DNA from: a virus
Length of the DNA: 41,329 bases
Reading direction: 5' to 3' (one strand)
UHGV virus genome: UHGV-0077431
The position numbers were made by a program, and so were the translations under genes. Shown here in pieces: positions 3,776 to 21,806 of this stretch. The notes under the pieces were generated by a model. That model saw only the letters and a program-made list of their open reading frames with translations, searched no databases and had not been told where the DNA came from. Numbering within the stretch: the stretch's first letter is position 1; each line of letters begins with the position of its first letter.

Positions 3776-3933
3776 AAACCCCCTGCTTGGCGCCAACCAA
3801 TGCAAGGGGTCTTAAGGTGATGAATCCGAGAGGCGTCACCACCGTGAACAGCTTCAATAGACAGCCTGAAACTAACACCTTCAGGGAAGATGTTCAAGGG
3901 AAAAATCTCTCTTGGTAAGGAGGTGTTACATGA

Positions 3934-4083
3934 ATGAGTTTGAAATCTATCGCTTCGAAAGCGGCACCAAAAGGGTTCCGTTGGGTTTTCTGCCGTTACC
4001 GCAAGGTACGTGGGAAATCCGCAAAAGTCCTTGATGCTCATGATTATGGGTATGAGGCGTGGGCGTTCTTAGTTCGTTGCTAA
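3934..4083 (+). CDS. Small basic hypothetical protein (49 aa); alternative reading 3930..4034 (34 aa)
   Basis: Consensus SD AAGGAGGT at 3917-3924 followed by two ATGs in different frames; not in ORF track (under 60 aa). Confidence 0.3.
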   Translation: MSLKSIASKAAPKGFRWVFCRYRKVRGKSAKVLDAHDYGYEAWAFLVRC

Positions 4084-4130
4084 GAGAACCACTTAAGGCA
4101 CCTTCGGGTGTCTTATTCAAGACTTTATTC

Positions 4131-4155
4131 AAGGCACCATCAGGTGCCTTTTTCT
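4131..4155 (+). terminator. Intrinsic terminator (AAGGCACC-atca-GGTGCCTT + T-run); weaker related hairpin at 4094-4113
   Basis: Perfect 8 bp stem with T tract on plus strand, abutting the int stop codon. Confidence 0.6.
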
Positions 4156-5335
4156 ATGCCATTTTTATTTCTGCATGCGGTACTTCAACCCATTCAACAT
4201 GATTCTGGGTATAAATTTTTGTCGATTTTGCATCACTATGGGCCATCCTTGCCTGCGGATCGATACCTTGTCTTTCGAAAATATGAGCCGCCAGCGCTCT
4301 AATCTCGTGGAAAGTTGGCCTTTCTTTGATAGGTAATTCTGCCGCTACACCTATCCGGTCCCGCAGCTCTGAAAATGCCCTGCTCAAATAGTCAGGGGCC
4401 ACCTGTGTTGGGTGGTTAACTTCCTTGCTTATCGGATTGCTTCTCTTTTCCAGAAGCCGGTGAACAACATAAGGACTGGCCACATTGTCTCTGCTGTTGT
4501 CGATGATCTCTTTCAGGGCCCTGCCGATCGGAATAGCGACGTGTGAAGCCTCTTTGTGCTGCACTTTTTGCCGGTGAATGTAAAGCGTTCCGAATATGCC
4601 AGCCTCCTCCTGATCGAACCATACACAGCCGCAAACCCCTTCTTGAGGTTCCTTGATCGAGTACCGGATCCGGGAAACTTCCAGGCGCGCTTGCGTAGTT
4701 TGTATGGCAAGGTCCATTGCAGTCTTCAGCCAAGGTTCAGCAGCTGCATGTATGGCCAAGAACTGTTCCAAAGTGAGTCGCCGGCGGACCTTTTTATCGA
4801 CACGCCGCATTTTTTTCCGTGTTGCAGGGTTATCCATCATTAGCGATTCATCAACAGCATAAGAGAATAGCTTTTTCAGGAAGCTAACTTTTCGGTTCTG
4901 AACATTGGCCGACGATTCAGAATGGTAATTTCGTATGTAGGCATTTACGTGCTCAAGCTCAATATCGCATGCGGGTATGTTATTAAAAAATTCTTTAACC
5001 CTGATGGCATCATTATTCCAATCGTCAAGTGTGCTTTTAGACGGCTGCTCATCTTTGATCGCTCTCTCCATAATGCGATCAACATGTTCAGAAAACGGGT
5101 GGGCTTCACCATTCAGCCCTCCCGATTCCCGAATTAATGAATCTATCGATGGTGTATTTTCAGGGCGCATCCTCAGGTTATATTCTCGGGCGATGGCGAT
5201 AGCCATTACTCGATCCGAACCGAGAGTTTTCTTTTTCCCAGTTATAAGCGTGAACTTATACACGCCACGATCTTTATCAAAAAAAAGATAATCAGGAAGG
5301 TGGCGGTATTCTTTTTTTCGTGGCCTTGCTGCCAT
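4154..5335 (-). CDS. int: Tyrosine integrase (lambda Int family)
   Basis: C-terminal catalytic region with H-x-x-R (FHEIRALAAH) and Y (KIYTQ); ATG at 5335 has GAGGG 6 nt upstream (track start at 5341 is TTG). Confidence 0.9.
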   Translation of the reverse strand: MAARPRKKEYRHLPDYLFFDKDRGVYKFTLITGKKKTLGSDRVMAIAIAREYNLRMRPENTPSIDSLIRESGGLNGEAHPFSEHVDRIMERAIKDEQPSKSTLDDWNNDAIRVKEFFNNIPACDIELEHVNAYIRNYHSESSANVQNRKVSFLKKLFSYAVDESLMMDNPATRKKMRRVDKKVRRRLTLEQFLAIHAAAEPWLKTAMDLAIQTTQARLEVSRIRYSIKEPQEGVCGCVWFDQEEAGIFGTLYIHRQKVQHKEASHVAIPIGRALKEIIDNSRDNVASPYVVHRLLEKRSNPISKEVNHPTQVAPDYLSRAFSELRDRIGVAAELPIKERPTFHEIRALAAHIFERQGIDPQARMAHSDAKSTKIYTQNHVEWVEVPHAEIKMA

Positions 5336-10228: not shown

Positions 10229-10426
10229 ATGGGCGCTTTTGATAACCAGGAAATTACGTTACCCGCATGCCCTAAGTGCGGCACTAAGACGAAGAAGAAA
10301 ATCGCTTGGCTCAAGTCGAACAAAAGTTTCACTTGTCGATGTGGAGCTACTATCAATGTCAACAGCAGCCAGCTTACTTCCGAAATCAGGAAGGTTGAGG
10401 ACAAGCTGAAGAAGCTCTTTAAATAG
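10229..10426 (+). CDS. Small C4 zinc-ribbon protein (65 aa)
   Basis: GAGGG 6 nt before ATG; CPKCG...CRCG; followed by intrinsic terminator. Overlaps antisense with 10259..10624. Confidence 0.45.
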   Translation: MGAFDNQEITLPACPKCGTKTKKKIAWLKSNKSFTCRCGATINVNSSQLTSEIRKVEDKLKKLFK

Positions 10427-10624
10427 TTTTTTATCGACTGATATTATTTCGTTATCAGAGGTTGGTTTTTCAGCCTCTGATTTTTTAGTCAGGATCATTT
10501 TTTCTACACATGTGACTACGCATTCCGAACAGATGGCAGGTTCGTCCTTACCACCTTTTGCGACGATCTTTATCGCTCCCAGTTCGGTTGCTCCGCAAAA
10601 TGAGCATGTGAATAAATGATTCAT
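10259..10624 (-). CDS. Small protein with ClpX-type N-terminal zinc-binding domain
   Basis: CSFCG-x7-KIVA-x8-ICSECV-x2-C matches the ClpX ZBD pattern; GAGG 5 nt before ATG at 10624; C-terminal third is antisense to 10229..10426. Confidence 0.5.
   Translation of the reverse strand: MNHLFTCSFCGATELGAIKIVAKGGKDEPAICSECVVTCVEKMILTKKSEAEKPTSDNEIISVDKKLFKELLQLVLNLPDFGSKLAAVDIDSSSTSTSETFVRLEPSDFLLRLSAALRACG
10454..10486 (+). terminator. Intrinsic terminator (ATCAGAGG stem, T6 tract), plus-strand only
   Basis: 8-9 bp stem followed by TTTTTT on plus; A-rich on minus. Confidence 0.7.
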
Positions 10625-10729
10625 GTAAACCTCTACCCCCAACCTAAGTTTTCTGTCAGCGAATCATCCGGTTATTCATATGCCACCGGCGGCTACTTCG
10701 TGGGCGTCCTGCCTGTTCGCTGTTGATGA

Positions 10730-10810
10730 ATACATAATTAACCAATGGCTAATATTTGTAAACAACCAATAGTTAATTTTTGAGTGTTTAGGAATTAACT
10801 CAATGATTTT
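10730..10810. promoter_or_regulatory. oL-like operator/promoter region
   Basis: AT-rich intergenic region with repeated GTTAAT/ATTAAC motifs also present at oR (GTTAATTTTTG at about 10772 versus GTTAATTTTG at 12524). Confidence 0.45.
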
Positions 10811-10880: not shown

Positions 10881-11087
10881 ATGGAACGTGATGATCTGGA
10901 AGAAGACCGCGCAGCGTTCATTGCTGGCGAGATAGGCGGAGTGGTGATTCAGTTAATCATCGAAGGGATCGAAATCAACCGTGATAATATCGTTGAGTAT
11001 CTGGAGGCAAAGCGTCGCGCGGTTGGTAACGTGATCCACAAAGGCTTGCTGAGAGATGCTGCGGAATTTGTGAGGAAAGGGCAATAA
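10881..11087 (+). CDS. Hypothetical protein (68 aa)
   Basis: AGAGGAG 5 nt upstream of ATG; ends at a shared terminator. Confidence 0.55.
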   Translation: MERDDLEEDRAAFIAGEIGGVVIQLIIEGIEINRDNIVEYLEAKRRAVGNVIHKGLLRDAAEFVRKGQ

Positions 11088-11112
11088 AAACCCGACGCGG
11101 TGGTCGGGTTAG
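11088..11112 (-). terminator. Terminator ending the cI operon (CCCGAC stem, U5 tail on minus strand); possibly bidirectional
   Basis: Hairpin cccgac-gcggtg-gtcggg with TTTTT on minus-strand RNA directly after the stop of 11109..11300. Confidence 0.6.
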
Positions 11113-11300
11113 AACAGGAGTTTAACTGCGGCTAGGGTCAGACCTGTGATTGTAAAGATCGCACCAACTATCGACCAAGTCTGAATCCTGAGTTCCTTTT
11201 GTAGGTCTTCTCGTGTCGCGTAATTAGACTTGATAACAGCAACATCAGTCTTAATGGACGCGATATCTACCTCAAGCTGCCTAACTCTTGCTTCAAGCAT
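11109..11300 (-). CDS. Small coiled-coil protein with C-terminal transmembrane helix (63 aa)
   Basis: GGAGGTGA 5 nt before ATG at 11300; heptad-like [23 protein letters not shown] then hydrophobic [22 protein letters not shown]. Track ORF extends to 11423. Confidence 0.55.
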
Positions 11301-11367
11301 ATCATCACCTCCGCCATCTCCGCCTCGTCGTGTTATTGCAGGTAGTTCACTATTAAATGGTACTACA

Positions 11368-11715
11368 TTATTTTGCGGCGTCGGCATTTTTTTCATCTTC
11401 CGTTTTTGCCGGGAATTTTTCATTTACCCAGTTAAGAACTGAAAACGCATTTATATGTGTTTCATTTCCACAATTGTTGCATATTAGTGAAAAGTAATAC
11501 TGGTTAGCAGTATCGGAATAAATGCTTTTTTCAGTAAAAACATTTACATAACTACCAAGCGCCATAGTGCATGGCATTCCAACACTCGCACTGACTTGAG
11601 GCACCGTTAACCTGTCATGCCCACATAGCGTGCATTTTAGATATATATTCTTTTCTGAGAAGTAAGAGACTAACATGTCCATGTTGATCCTTTCGAACCC
11701 CTGTTCACTCGCCAT
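11368..11715 (-). CDS. Cys-rich putative zinc-binding protein (115 aa), first gene downstream of cI
   Basis: CTLCGH ... CNNCGN motifs; GAGGA 8 nt before ATG. Confidence 0.55.
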
Positions 11716-11731
11716 TCACATATCCTCAGAG

Positions 11732-12466
11732 TTAAAGTCGATTATATTTAATTGACTCATGAATCAATGCCTTACCCATGACATAAAGCTGATCCTGATT
11801 CGCCTCATTGATGTACCACTTTTCATATGCAGAGTTATCAGACAGAACAGCGAGCTTGTCACCTTGCATCTGTAGGCGCTTAACATGAAACGTCTTACCG
11901 TATACGAAAGAGTAAACACCGTCGGTCTGGAAGTGACGAACTGAGATGTCGACGAATAGTCGATCACCAGAAACGAGGGTTGGTGACATACTGTCGCCGT
12001 TAACAGTCATGACCTTCACATCTTCTGGATCGCGATTTCCAAAAAGCACTCGGGCATGTTCAGTCGTGAACTCAATGGCGTACAAGACTTCAACATAGTC
12101 AGAAAGCATGTAGGTGCCAGGTCCAGCACTGACAGATAAATCCAGAACTTCAACGCGATAAACATCCTGCTCTGGCTTATTAACCATGCGTTTCACTTCC
12201 CCTGTATCTGTTGGCTCACCAACACCGTATTCCAGCCATTCGGCACGTACACCAAGTACTTTACTGAGAGCCACTATTTTCTGACTGTCCGGTATGGCCT
12301 GGGCGTTGAACCACTTCCAAACTCCAGGTGTAGTGATCTCCACCCCGGCTTTATTAAGCAGGTCTGCAAGGTTTTTGTTTCGTCCCCGACCAGTTAATCC
12401 AGCAAGTTGACAAACTTGCAGCAGCCTAGTCGTGAAACCTTCTTTCGTTTCGTCTCTCTTAACCAT
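11732..12466 (-). CDS. cI: CI-type prophage repressor (HTH + LexA-like S24 peptidase domain)
   Basis: C-terminal VNGDSMSPT...HVKRL (Ser/Lys dyad context); divergent from cro across an operator-rich spacer. Confidence 0.9.
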   Translation of the reverse strand: MVKRDETKEGFTTRLLQVCQLAGLTGRGRNKNLADLLNKAGVEITTPGVWKWFNAQAIPDSQKIVALSKVLGVRAEWLEYGVGEPTDTGEVKRMVNKPEQDVYRVEVLDLSVSAGPGTYMLSDYVEVLYAIEFTTEHARVLFGNRDPEDVKVMTVNGDSMSPTLVSGDRLFVDISVRHFQTDGVYSFVYGKTFHVKRLQMQGDKLAVLSDNSAYEKWYINEANQDQLYVMGKALIHESIKYNRL

Positions 12467-12549
12467 TAGTTAAATATCCGGGAACTTGACTTTGCTGTCA
12501 GTTAATATTTATTATTAACTTGTGGTTAATTTTGTAATCAGGAGAGTCA
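12467..12549. promoter_or_regulatory. oR/pR/pRM-like divergent control region
   Basis: TTGACT (12485-12490) with TTATTA about 17 nt downstream; palindromic GTTAATAtttattATTAAC and GGTTAATTTTG. Confidence 0.6.
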
Positions 12550-12798
12550 ATGAACGCTGTAGAAATTGCAGTAGAAGCTGTCGGTGGACAAACAGCAGCC
12601 GCAAAAATTTGTGGTTTATCCCCGGTAGCTGTTCACCGCTGGGTTAAAAACGCCTGTCTTCCTCGTACCGAATACACAAAAAAAACGGAATACGCGGAGT
12701 TACTTGCTTCTAAATCAGCAGGTCAGTTCACTGCTGACTGGTTGCTGGAAAATGCTAATCCTGATCGTCCAGGAAAGGTTAACGATCCATCAGCTTAA
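12550..12798 (+). CDS. cro: Cro-like repressor (Cro/YdaS family HTH)
   Basis: HTH GGQTAAAKICGLSPVAVHRW; GGAGAG SD; position opposite cI. Confidence 0.75.
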   Translation: MNAVEIAVEAVGGQTAAAKICGLSPVAVHRWVKNACLPRTEYTKKTEYAELLASKSAGQFTADWLLENANPDRPGKVNDPSA

Positions 12799-12826: not shown

Positions 12827-13390
12827 GTGGATAAACAACACTGGAAAGTAGAGCGCCAACCTGCATGGCTGGTGGCTGCAATCAAAAGAACTATTGCCGA
12901 AATGCCAGGCGGTTATACAGAAGCTGCTGAATGGCTTGGCCTGTATCGCGCTGGAAAACTCTCAACGGATGCGCTCTACAACAGACTGCGTAACGAAGGA
13001 GATCAAATTTTCCCGCTTGAGTGGGCGATGGTGCTTCAGGATGCAAGTGGTACTAAGTATGTCACCGATGCGATAGCCCGCCGTAGTGGTGGCGTCTTCG
13101 TTCCGCTGGTGGAGGTTGATGATCTTGATAACGGCGATATCAACCAGCGCCTGATGGAGTCCATCGAATGGATTGGTAAACACTCGCAGTACCTGCGTAA
13201 GGCAACCGCTGACGGGGTTATTGATCCGGCAGAACGTGAGCAGATTGAAGAGAACAGCTATCAGGTGATGGCTAAGTGGCAGGAACATTTGACGCTGCTT
13301 TTCCGTGTGTTTTGTGCGCCGGAAAAAGGTGACGCCCGCGAGTGTGCAGCTCCGGGCGTCGTGGCAGACAAATCTTGTATGGAGAAGTAA
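12827..13390 (+). CDS. CII-like regulatory protein (YdaT-like)
   Basis: Position after cro; GTG start with GGGGA SD; family call from memory only. Confidence 0.55.
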   Translation: MDKQHWKVERQPAWLVAAIKRTIAEMPGGYTEAAEWLGLYRAGKLSTDALYNRLRNEGDQIFPLEWAMVLQDASGTKYVTDAIARRSGGVFVPLVEVDDLDNGDINQRLMESIEWIGKHSQYLRKATADGVIDPAEREQIEENSYQVMAKWQEHLTLLFRVFCAPEKGDARECAAPGVVADKSCMEK

Positions 13391-19419: not shown

Positions 19420-20472
19420 ATGAAAAATACTGTAAATATAAACAGTGTTGAGCTTATCAACGCTGACTGCCTGCAATACCTCGCTACCCTCCCAGATAAC
19501 ACCATCGACCTTATTGTTACGGATCCGCCTTATTTTAAGGTGAAGCCGAACGGCTGGGATAATCAGTGGAACGGTGACGCCGACTATCTTCGATGGCTTG
19601 ATATGTGTCTTGCCCAGTTCTGGCGAGTGCTTAAGCCTGCCGGCAGCCTGTATTTGTTTTCAGGTCACCGACTTGCATCCGATATTGAGATCATGATGCG
19701 TGAACGCTTCAACGTTATGAACCACATTATCTGGGCGAAGCCATCAGGGCGTTGGAACGGTTGTAATAAAGAAAGCCTGCGCTCTTACTTCCCCGCGACG
19801 GAACGCATCCTTTTCGCTGAGCATTATCAGGGGCCATATAATCCGAAAAGCGACGGATTTGCTGAGAAAAGCAACGAGGTCAAACAGCACGTCATGGCTC
19901 CGTTAATCACCTACTTTCGTGATGCACGAGCCGAACTGGGGGTCACGTCCAGGCAAATAGCTGACGCCACCGGAAAGAAAAATATGGCGTCTCACTGGTT
20001 CGGTACCAGTCAGTGGCAACTACCAAACGAGCAGGATTACGAAAAGCTGCAGGAATTGTTCACTCAGATCGCCATTGAGAAGCACCGCGCCTCTGAACTC
20101 AAAGCACCGCATCACCAGCTGGTGGCCACATGGCATTCGTTGAACCGGAAATACCTTGATCTGCTGGAAGAGTACAAATCTCTTCGGCGGCATTTCTCTG
20201 TGACAGTAGCCGTGCCCTATACAGACGTCTGGACACATAAACCCGTCCAGTTCTATCCAGGCAAACACCCGTGCGAAAAGCCCGCTGATATGTTGCGGCA
20301 AATCATCAACGCCAGCAGCAGGCCCGGCGATGTGGTAGCTGATTTCTTTATGGGCTCGGGATCAACTGTTAAAGCAGCCATTGAACTGGGCCGCCAGGCT
20401 ATCGGCGTAGAACTGGAAGAGGAACGTTTCAACCAGACGGTAAGTGAGGTAAGGCAGCTGGCAGGGGAATAA
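19420..20472 (+). CDS. DNA methyltransferase, beta-class amino-MTase (N6-adenine or N4-cytosine), orphan
   Basis: N-terminal DPPY motif (IVTDPPYF), C-terminal FxGxG AdoMet motif (FFMGSGST); no endonuclease gene adjacent. Confidence 0.85.
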   Translation: MKNTVNINSVELINADCLQYLATLPDNTIDLIVTDPPYFKVKPNGWDNQWNGDADYLRWLDMCLAQFWRVLKPAGSLYLFSGHRLASDIEIMMRERFNVMNHIIWAKPSGRWNGCNKESLRSYFPATERILFAEHYQGPYNPKSDGFAEKSNEVKQHVMAPLITYFRDARAELGVTSRQIADATGKKNMASHWFGTSQWQLPNEQDYEKLQELFTQIAIEKHRASELKAPHHQLVATWHSLNRKYLDLLEEYKSLRRHFSVTVAVPYTDVWTHKPVQFYPGKHPCEKPADMLRQIINASSRPGDVVADFFMGSGSTVKAAIELGRQAIGVELEEERFNQTVSEVRQLAGE

Positions 20473-20542: not shown

Positions 20543-20758
20543 ATGTATCGAATGGAAAAAATCACGACGGGTATTGCATACGGCGCATCGGGTGGGGGGA
20601 CCGGATACTGGTTGCTTCAGCTCCTCGATAAAGTCTCCCCATCTCAATGGGCGGCCATTGGTGTGCTCGGTAGCCTCATGTTTGGTTTGCTGACGTGGTT
20701 AACGAGTCTGTACTTCCAAATCAAAGCGGATCGCCGCAAAGCTGCGCGAGGTGAATGA
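20543..20758 (+). CDS. Holin (phage 21 S-type pinholin), dual-start motif
   Basis: Similarity to S21 as recalled ([30 protein letters not shown]); Met1 and Met4 starts. Confidence 0.85.
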
Positions 20759-21294
20759 TGTCGAACAAAGCAAAGCTCAGCGTAGCAGTGCTGGCGCTAA
20801 TCGCGTCAGGGGCTTCTGCTCCACTCATTTTTGACCAATTCATCAGCGAGAAAGAAGGCAATGCGCTGGTGGCCGTTGTTGATCCGGGTGGGGTCTGGTC
20901 TTTATGTCACGGCGTGACCGTTATCGATGGCAGGCGTGTTGTTAAAGGCATGACGGCCACTGAGGAACAATGCCGGAAGGTTAACGCTATTGAACGCGAT
21001 AAGGCATTAGCCTGGGTTGATCGCAATATCAAAGTGCCTCTGACAGAGCCTCAGAAGGTGGGTATCGCATCCTTCTGCCCGTATAACATCGGCCCCGGTA
21101 AATGCTTCCCATCGACCTTCTATAAGCGCATCAACGCAGGTGACCGCATCGGTGCATGCGAGGCAATCCGCTGGTGGATTAAAGACGGTGGCCGTGATTG
21201 TCGTCTAACCAAAGGCCAGAAGAATGGCTGCTATGGCCAGGTTGAGCGACGGGACCAGGAAAGCGCGCTGGCGTGCTGGGGGCTGGACCAATGA
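20755..21294 (+). CDS. SAR endolysin (T4-lysozyme-type muramidase with N-terminal signal-anchor-release domain)
   Basis: Hydrophobic Gly/Ala-rich N-terminus; E-x8-D-x5-T catalytic pattern ([22 protein letters not shown]); ATGA overlap with holin. Confidence 0.9.
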
Positions 21295-21806
21295 AAATTA
21301 ATCCGGGTCTTATCGGCGTTGTCGTTATTGCTGGCCTTTCCGTCGCTCTCGTTAAGAGCTGCTCCGACGCCAGTAGCCTACAGAGCGATAACGACGTTCT
21401 GCGAAGTGACAACTCTATGCAGGGGCAGGTGATCGCCACCCAGGCATTCAACTTCAATCGATTCAATCAGGTTGCAGAACATGCCAACAGGCTTAACTCC
21501 CTGATCGACACCAGCACCGAAGAAACCGTAATTGAATACCGGGAGATACTCCGCCGTGAAAAAACCTGTGATCTGCCTGTTCCTGCTGACATTGCTGGTG
21601 GGCTGCTCGAATACGCGTACCGTTTACGTTCCAGCGCAATGCACGCCGATACCGACGGAATTAACGCAGCCGATGATAGTACCGCTGCCGCCGGCTCAAT
21701 AACGTACTGCCAGGCTGTGCTCTGGATTAAGCCGCTGCTGGCCGTGATTGAAAAGGGCAATAACAATTTCGCTGGAATTCGTCAAATAGAGAGCGAGCGT
21801 CAATAG
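21291..21806 (+). CDS. Rz i-spanin
   Basis: N-terminal TM helix, ATGA overlap with endolysin stop, embedded +1-frame lipoprotein ORF. Confidence 0.8.
   Translation: MKINPGLIGVVVIAGLSVALVKSCSDASSLQSDNDVLRSDNSMQGQVIATQAFNFNRFNQVAEHANRLNSLIDTSTEETVIEYREILRREKTCDLPVPADIAGGLLEYAYRLRSSAMHADTDGINAADDSTAAAGSITYCQAVLWIKPLLAVIEKGNNNFAGIRQIESERQ
21556..21702 (+). CDS. Rz1 o-spanin lipoprotein embedded within Rz
   Basis: MKKPVICLFLLTLLVGCSN (lipobox LVGC) then Pro-rich; GTG start; not in ORF track. Confidence 0.65.
   Translation: MKKPVICLFLLTLLVGCSNTRTVYVPAQCTPIPTELTQPMIVPLPPAQ

Follow-up and report, generated by a model that had tools for sequence, protein, structure and literature searches.

The question raised by the DNA considered here is what a pair of small genes, lying directly behind the repressor gene, contributes to a prophage. 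The DNA is the virus genome UHGV-0077431, analysed as one stretch of 41,329 nucleotides (nt), called the window throughout; it is a lambda-like prophage, and the region of interest is identical to the IMG/VR contig UViG_3300045988_083968 (locus L086). The first-pass annotation, made from the sequence alone, had offered the two genes as a candidate superinfection-exclusion or abortive-infection pair. Both genes, here called A and B, belong to conserved protein families and are paired across genera, and are thus not chance open reading frames. Gene B probably yields a long and a short isoform from nested starts within a single frame. Together the two are read here as a lysogen-expressed antiviral membrane module, a tentative reading that falls a little short of probable and rests on genomic context and protein architecture. 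The features that the argument needs at the outset are given below, with lengths in amino acids (aa).

11368 to 11715, minus strand: gene A, an open reading frame of 115 aa (phrog_4293, 6e-30)
11109 to 11396, minus strand: gene B in its long form, 95 aa, with the same N-terminus in homologues of 92-126 aa and with phrog_6324 (2e-17) spanning the extension
11109 to 11300, minus strand: gene B in its short form, 63 aa, with its ATG at 11300 and its stop at 11109, present in the list of open reading frames and equal to the conserved core, which is a stand-alone gene elsewhere
11301 to 11396, minus strand: N-terminal extension of B, an NVVPF-type peptide and a GGDGGGDD linker (linker at 11301-11324)
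11307 to 11312, minus strand: internal Shine-Dalgarno sequence GGAGGT, 6 nt upstream of the core ATG at 11298-11300

The second gene had at first been recorded as a protein of 63 aa. That open reading frame (11109..11300) is real and represents the conserved core of the family, but the frame extends upstream of it to 92-95 aa. It is open as far as 11423 and, besides the start at 11396, holds an alternative start at 11387 (MPTPQNN) that would give a product of 92 aa. Homologues and most annotation pipelines start the gene at one of these two positions, and some pipelines annotate products of 63 or 70 aa. The overlap with gene A amounts to 29 nt from the start at 11396 or 20 nt from the one at 11387. 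Among distant pairs, the start of B stands at -4, -8 or +1 nt relative to the stop of its partner, spacings that are typical of translational coupling and suggest that B is coupled to the partner gene. Homologues in Serratia and Brenneria begin with MPTPD(S)NVVPF, those of E. coli prophages are annotated as 126 aa, and the B of the window itself appears in public records in versions of 63, 92, 95 and 104 aa, of which the 92-aa form is found on the largest number of contigs. The naming of the gene at 11109-11423 is likewise inconsistent in these records, as it is sometimes called 'hemolysin XhlA' or even 'GTPase HflX'; hence, public records of B are to be treated cautiously. Among close relatives, substitutions fall mostly at the third codon position (6 of 8-11) and changes of length are in frame. 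Judged from its sequence, the upstream extension of B is coding.

The core ATG is preceded by a translation signal of its own. The motif GGAGG occupies -12 to -8 before this ATG in 16 of 18 diverse homologues, and the codon at -4 is GGA in 19 of 21 homologues whereas only 21 of the 106 remaining Gly codons in these tracts are GGA (Fisher p = 1e-9). In a homologue in Edwardsiella (L101) the core Met is changed to Val by GTG, with GGAGGT still upstream. The B of phage epsilon34 has the Gly tract present and no GGAGG. The frame therefore holds two in-frame starts, each with its own conserved translation signal. The conservation of the internal GGAGG-N7-ATG makes it likely that B exists as a long (92-95 aa) and a short (63 aa) isoform, which would require both starts to be used, and the start of the 63-aa form is more likely a conserved site of internal initiation than the sole start of the gene.

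Position ties gene B to gene A. At every A locus examined, a B-type gene lies immediately downstream of A and usually overlaps it. These loci comprise the window, E. coli prophages, 11 IMG/VR contigs, prophages of Serratia and Brenneria, the Salmonella siphoviruses SPN3UB and 29485, eight loci from a genome scan seeded with B, and six divergent A members picked regardless of their context; Oceanimonas, Providencia and Mixta are also represented. The same overlapping position upstream of B is taken in other genomes by a second partner family of ~150 aa (epsilon34 gp45-like, here A2). Pairs of A2 and B are found in epsilon34 (gp45-gp44), Xenorhabdus, Photorhabdus, Brenneria and Edwardsiella, and the epsilon34-type version of partner and B is present on at least 1000 Salmonella contigs. 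Comparison of A with A2 gave no sign of relatedness (hhalign probability 0.1%), and no known domain was found in the A2 family.

The N-terminal extension of B goes with the partner. All 19 partner-linked B proteins of the first survey have an extension that ends in a Gly-rich tract (16 by regular expression and 3 by eye), as against ~10 of 76 unpartnered B proteins with any Gly tract (2 by regular expression and ~8 with short GG tracts by eye), and the stand-alone relatives of B start exactly at the core Met, without the extension. The DNA of the window is 86% identical to that of E. coli prophages from the C-terminal domain of cI through A and the extension of B, and the similarity ends 16 nt past the core ATG of B, at a joint at 11284. 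Likewise, near-identical copies of A plus extension are joined to three different B cores. As the extension tracks both the partner and the recombination boundary, the best explanation is that B works with its partner through this segment, which is proposed to be a docking arm for A and would be in direct contact with it.

The mosaicism of this region reaches beyond the B gene. Relative to 17 complete E. coli genomes, the joints lie at 11284 and 12151, and the DNA-binding domain of cI and the core of B are different modules. A megablast search of the region against 50,697 phage records returned nothing, and tblastn recovered only distant pairs.

Gene A agrees with its first description as a 115-aa reading frame with two CxxC pairs downstream of cI. 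The pairs are residues 28-31 and 79-82, and C28, C31, C79 and C82, together with W96, are invariant in 36 family members. The protein (12.9 kDa, pI 5.0) is acidic, contains no hydrophobic stretch and is predicted to be cytosolic. Its family is rare, as an exhaustive profile search of 1.84 billion representatives gave 31 clusters at 50% identity, with lengths of 88-180 aa and a 53-aa fragment as the sole exception. A first AlphaFold2 model from 5 sequences only was poor (predicted local distance difference test, pLDDT, 57), and a model from an alignment of 34 sequences reached a pLDDT of 85; in the latter an N-terminal helix is followed by a beta-sheet bearing both knuckles and then by C-terminal helices. 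Structural matches of this model showed a partial similarity to zinc ribbons that was not significant, and searches of PDB sequences with the profiles of A and A2 found nothing, so that A has no recognised relative by fold. Scans of A and B against Pfam, NCBIfam, PHROGs and PADLOC gave only PHROGs of unknown function and zinc-finger or coiled-coil matches at noise level. The invariant cysteines suggest that A is a putative zinc-ribbon-containing protein whose Cys4 site would bind zinc. It is further a putative partner or sensor, where 'sensor', like 'effector' for B, is a label only.

Two further features of B bear on what the second protein might do.

11205 to 11222, minus strand: YATRED, a beta-layer motif of the form [hydrophobic]-A-T-K/R-x-D/E, residues 59-64 of the long form, which interrupts the heptads
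11115 to 11171, minus strand: C-terminal transmembrane tail anchor, the top 19-residue Kyte-Doolittle window (mean 2.03)

The long form of B is thus ordered as N-terminal peptide, Gly/Asp linker, coiled coil, beta-layer and tail anchor. The 63-aa part has 7 a/d core positions that are hydrophobic in one heptad register (the best of seven), and the hydrophobic window is a single segment at residues 76-94 of 95, with a hydrophobic C-terminus kept across the family. The register scan and the hydropathy value confirm the heptad coiled coil and the one C-terminal transmembrane helix that the first-pass annotation had seen in the 63-aa protein, and its general picture of a soluble Cys-rich protein beside a small membrane protein is correct. 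The N-terminus of B is polar and basic, with no signal peptide. Since the hydrophobic tail lies at the extreme C-terminus and a signal peptide is missing, B is predicted to be tail-anchored in the inner membrane with its stalk in the cytoplasm.

The family profile runs from a variable N-terminus through a Gly-containing G(G/D) stretch and the coiled coil to a C-terminal transmembrane segment, and T61 and D64 of the beta-layer are nearly invariant in it. The family profile matched PDB sequences, namely 5apz (a Tcar0761-GCN4 fusion, E = 1.5e-5) and its sister constructs 5apx and 5apw, and the alignment to 5apz places IKSNYATKEDL on MQANMATKDDL. In trimeric alpha/beta coiled coils the beta-layer is built from the motif [aliphatic]-A-T-K-polar-[DE], which is found too in DUF1640 integral membrane proteins (PMC4786415). 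Such a layer is characteristic of coiled coils of this class with three parallel chains, and B may well form trimers. The B of the window had no match to Pfam CCDC90-like/DUF1640 (PF07798), and the best homologues scored 20.9 and 12.0 bits at a cut-off of 33.5.

The surroundings of the pair in the window are as follows.

11732 to 12466, minus strand: cI-like repressor, 244 aa, with a helix-turn-helix (HTH) and an S24 peptidase domain (Pfam Peptidase_S24, 8.5e-17; phrog_4, 5.3e-47)
11723 to 11727, minus strand: GAGGA ribosome-binding site of gene A, within the spacer between cI and A, read from the sequence
11081 to 11110, minus strand: intrinsic terminator closing the cI-A-B unit, its stem overlapping the stop codon of B, from a terminator scan and RNA folding
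12550 to 12798: cro-like gene, divergent from cI, from profile scans
12827 to 13390: cII-like gene, beyond the cro-like gene, from profile scans

The stop of cI and the start of gene A are 16 nt apart, and a terminator scan of the minus strand between the two genes found no terminator-like site. Behind B, the minus-strand terminator noted earlier was recovered as an 8-bp stem at 11110-11089 followed by UUUUUAUU, with a fold of -12.4 kcal/mol (z = -2.49 against shuffles). The short gap with its ribosome-binding site, the uninterrupted passage from cI to A and the terminator after B make co-transcription of A and B with cI plausible. In that arrangement cI would head a presumed PRM transcript that carries the module, which would then be made in the lysogen. 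Operator-like repeats at 10738-10777 resemble those at 12513-12530 (TTAACCAATGGCTAA, AACCAATAGTTAA, TTAACTTGTGGTTAA), and these repeats flanking the immunity region are candidate OL and OR sites for the repressor of the window. With matching repeats on both sides, the cI-A-B block is enclosed by OL- and OR-like sites, which is the place of rexAB in lambda. Gene order, spacer, terminator and operator-like sites hence all agree with the initial placement of the module downstream of cI, on the cI strand and in a rexAB-like position.

Three neighbours may be recorded beside this block. A 68-aa reading frame on the plus strand (10881-11087), with a profile of unknown function (phrog_3975, 7e-35), converges on B and stops one base short of the terminator stem. 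It also follows B in two IMG/VR loci (L095 and L096) and, seemingly as a degraded copy, in E. coli prophages, but not in Serratia, Brenneria or Edwardsiella; this convergent gene was considered as a third component and dropped because its linkage is inconsistent across loci. The first gene to the left of the OL-like operators encodes a 127-aa protein on the minus strand (10259-10642; phrog_20296, 4e-68) with a ClpX-type C4 zinc finger that lies just below threshold (Pfam zf-C4_ClpX, 8.4e-6), and no N-like antiterminator was recognised at this position. Further away, just upstream of the lysis genes, a 350-aa DNA methyltransferase on the plus strand (19420-20472; phrog_67, 3e-102) may be an anti-restriction or epigenetic moron.

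Across genomes, the commonest site of an A-B pair is directly downstream of a repressor of S24 cI type, short HTH_3 type or Arc-like type. Other phage settings occur; for example, the pair of SPN3UB adjoins arc/ant, before the tail genes, one locus lies beside a baseplate gene and one follows the integrase at the end of a prophage. In Edwardsiella tarda (L098-L100), a gp45-like/B pair resides on a satellite-like element with integrase, AlpA, DUF927 primase, SSB and small terminase, and this pair occurs in two copies in one assembly. In Oceanimonas baumannii (NZ_NQJF01000005; L015, 2832-5829), the A-B pair lies in a compact defence island, between a PD-T7-4 homologue (4e-77) and a type IV retron reverse transcriptase (7e-177). 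The same island also adjoins a weak PDC-S33-like gene. Between cI and N, lambdoid phages have a recognised mosaic hotspot; rexAB and bstA are found there, both of them co-expressed with the repressor and acting by abortive infection (PMC8585504). As the loci fall in prophage repressor sites, satellite-like elements and a defence island, the context favours an accessory or defence role. To this extent the exclusion or abortive-infection candidate of the first-pass annotation stands, but no homology shows either activity.

How an antiviral pair of this kind might operate can be outlined. Long B, started inside the 3' end of gene A, would be translationally coupled to A, and A would dock on the tethered N-terminal peptide of long B to give a membrane-bound complex of sensor and stalk. 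The complex would block phage entry at the inner membrane, or would perturb the membrane once A senses a phage cue or product. Short B would dilute the docking sites in mixed trimers, and the ratio of long to short form would set a threshold or spare the resident phage; such an effect would resemble the one proposed for excess RexB (PMC8585504) and those known for S107/S105 and SieB/Esc. In a wider form of the idea, which is conceivable and rather doubtful, the pairs would make up a modular immune family of prophages and islands, with the pair of the window as its founding example, in which unrelated cytosolic sensors (A or gp45-like) plug into a common trimeric tail-anchored B effector by means of its Gly-tethered docking peptide, and the isoform without the peptide tunes the response or provides self-immunity.

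Several observations weigh against the antiviral reading or its parts. PADLOC defence models matched neither A nor B, the sole line being PDC-S64 at E = 0.0057 and 13.7 bits, and the E. coli homologues (WP_000135661, WP_225387180 and two others) were not found in the DefensePredictor supplements. Known defence neighbours occur at only 1 of about six checked chromosomal non-prophage A-B loci. A trimer of B would bring together three transmembrane helices, and a pore would need a higher-order assembly. The RNA around the internal start of B has no special structure (z = 0.05), and a control of this start by RNA structure is accordingly unsupported. Moreover, stand-alone B-like genes occupy conserved housekeeping neighbourhoods in Xenorhabdus, Pantoea, Pseudescherichia and Burkholderiales, for example between epmC and a GNAT gene in Xenorhabdus and beside terC, gltX or an EAL gene elsewhere, and for this reason the B core is not obviously a toxin.

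The stand-alone genes have peculiarities of their own. Those of Xenorhabdus (L025 at 3869-4705, L013 and L033) encode tail-anchored proteins that have grown to 170-280 aa through many tandem 14-residue units (STLQKDMVAVRSDI), and the loci of Pseudescherichia (L037 and L044) and Erwinia (L057) hold tandem gene duplicates.

Searches of the literature by accession and by topic, and of the DefensePredictor supplements, found no description of A or B, and the database names of both families are all 'hypothetical' or automated labels. A paper on exclusion by overlapping genes of Fc02 was considered and set aside, as it deals with an unrelated Mu-like locus.

The best survivor among the other explanations, although unlikely, is that the pair serves host physiology or lysogenic conversion, with B as a membrane scaffold, which its stand-alone chromosomal relatives and the DUF1640/MCUR1-CCDC90B-type proteins also appear to be, A as an adaptor through which a host membrane complex is recruited or modulated, and a benefit other than phage defence. 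The housekeeping settings of the stand-alone B-like genes would suit such a role, and so would the layout of beta-layer and C-terminal transmembrane helix, which is common to DUF1640 (MCUR1-CCDC90B-type) proteins, described as integral membrane stalk proteins. Several A-B loci (for example L038, L051 and L109) likewise lie in ordinary chromosomal surroundings with no phage or defence genes. However, most partnered loci are prophage immunity regions, moron sites and mobile elements, conflict genes that diversify rapidly typically show partner swapping and mosaic joints of this kind, and the Oceanimonas locus places the pair between two validated defence genes (PD-T7-4 and the retron).

It is quite improbable that the pair is a stabiliser akin to a toxin-antitoxin system, with a small membrane toxin (B or one of its isoforms) neutralised by A or the other isoform, so that the prophage or island is kept. 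A small overlapping two-gene unit that moves between elements does resemble such a system, the two isoforms recall the logic of holin/antiholin and SieB/Esc, and XhlA, to which the family is weakly similar, is a membrane-lytic protein. On the other hand, the core exists without a partner in core-genome loci, the partner is encoded upstream and is at least as large as B, unlike the arrangement with a labile antitoxin or antisense RNA, and no toxin-antitoxin family was matched in Pfam, NCBIfam or PADLOC.

A role in lysis is still harder to credit. According to this explanation B is an XhlA-like accessory of the holin that tunes the phage's own lysis, and A is its regulator. XhlA belongs to the lysis cassette of Bacillus prophages, NCBI and UniRef label several family members 'hemolysin XhlA', and B matched the 'hemolysin' profile phrog_1193 at E = 0.037. 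The B of the window, however, had no match to Pfam XhlA (PF10779) at E <= 1, and some homologues scored 10.8-23.4 bits (E 7e-5 to 0.06), below the gathering score of 34.7 bits; as all scores are below the cut-off, the label rests on sub-threshold similarity. Endolysin and Rz spanin genes are present elsewhere in the window (20755-21806), 9 kb from B and on the other strand, whereas B shares the strand of the repressor within the immunity region, and hence B is not part of the lysis cassette. Related pairs are also found in non-phage islands. B was accordingly rejected as the holin partner of this phage on its position and its scores. Clear homology to a lytic-cycle function, named in the first-pass annotation as a finding that would speak against its proposal, was thus looked for and did not appear.

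The least probable explanation, that only the 63-aa B is made, with the extension as an untranslated leader, the G-rich run as a mere ribosome-binding site and the pairing as incidental, can point to the strong conserved GGAGG-N7-ATG at the core start, to the pipelines that annotate 63- or 70-aa products and to the stand-alone relatives that begin at the core Met, but it is at odds with a frame that, in every partnered homologue, continues over 25-50 codons and meets the partner stop in ATGA, -8 or +1 overlaps, with a Gly tract of 8-10 codons that far exceeds the need of a Shine-Dalgarno sequence and is present in epsilon34 without GGAGG, with the third-position bias of substitutions and in-frame indels, and with the PHROG profiles that align across the extension.

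The antiviral membrane module thus remains the preferred reading. If the pair is antiviral, the defence hotspot linked to the repressor in enterobacterial prophages gains a further system, compact (~0.6 kb) and widely mobile. The pair would also offer a simple model of a soluble sensor coupled to a membrane protein via a tethered peptide, give beta-layer coiled-coil membrane anchors their first biological role in bacteria, and add a new case of isoform control through nested starts.

Among known systems, RexA/RexB of lambda comes closest in layout. It has the same slot between cI and OL, lies on the repressor strand, is closed by a terminator, and consists of a gene for a soluble protein followed by one for a membrane protein. 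The likeness does not extend to sequence, as neither A nor B matched RexA or RexB in PADLOC, Pfam, NCBIfam or PHROGs, and the initial impression that the pair resembles neither these proteins nor any recognised exclusion protein is upheld. RexB is a polytopic membrane protein, whereas B is predicted to be a single-pass tail-anchored coiled coil, and A with its 115 aa is far smaller than RexA. An excess of RexB suppresses exclusion, which suggests that the outcome depends on the stoichiometry of the membrane component (PMC8585504). The two isoforms of B could take a comparable role by analogy.

Nested starts in one frame, with a second product that antagonises the first, are known from lambda S105/S107 and P22 sieB/esc, and B resembles them in having a conserved internal Shine-Dalgarno sequence and start within one frame. 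The starts of B are 29-32 codons apart as against 2 in lambda S, and the isoforms would differ by a cytoplasmic tethered peptide and not, as S105/S107 do, by charge on the transmembrane helix. XhlA of the Bacillus prophage PBSX is small like B and likewise combines a coiled coil with a C-terminal transmembrane helix, and several databases give its name to members of the B family. XhlA genes lie in lysis cassettes of Gram-positive phages, whereas B, with its sub-threshold similarity, is found in islands and, within Gram-negative prophages, at immunity or moron sites.

BstA of the Salmonella prophage BTP1 is encoded directly downstream of the repressor, is highly expressed in lysogens and has its own terminator (PMC8585504). 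The site behind the repressor is shared, and epsilon34, a P22-like phage related to BTP1, has a partner-B pair at that site. In contrast, BstA works alone as a soluble protein, at the sites of phage replication, comes with a DNA-based element for self-immunity and has no homology to A or B. On the side of protein structure, B shares with Tcar0761 and the DUF1640 (MCUR1-CCDC90B-like) proteins the [hydrophobic]-A-T-K-x-[DE] beta-layer set in heptads, as the match to 5apz indicates, and with DUF1640 proteins the combination of beta-layer motif and C-terminal membrane anchor (PMC4786415). It differs in being much shorter, in its Gly-tethered N-terminal peptide and in its dedicated partner gene, and it does not reach the Pfam cut-off.

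Similarly, gp30/31 of Sbash and gp30/31 of Butters are prophage-expressed pairs of a cytoplasmic and a membrane protein near the immunity region (PMC6426596, PMC7542560); their sequences are unrelated to A and B, their membrane partners are multi-pass and their hosts belong to a different phylum. In its logic the A-B pair is a variant of this theme of repressor-linked pairs of soluble and membrane protein, and the parts that are new in it, as predicted from the sequence, are the Cys4 partner, the beta-layer tail-anchored stalk, the tethered docking peptide, the swappable partners and the nested starts.

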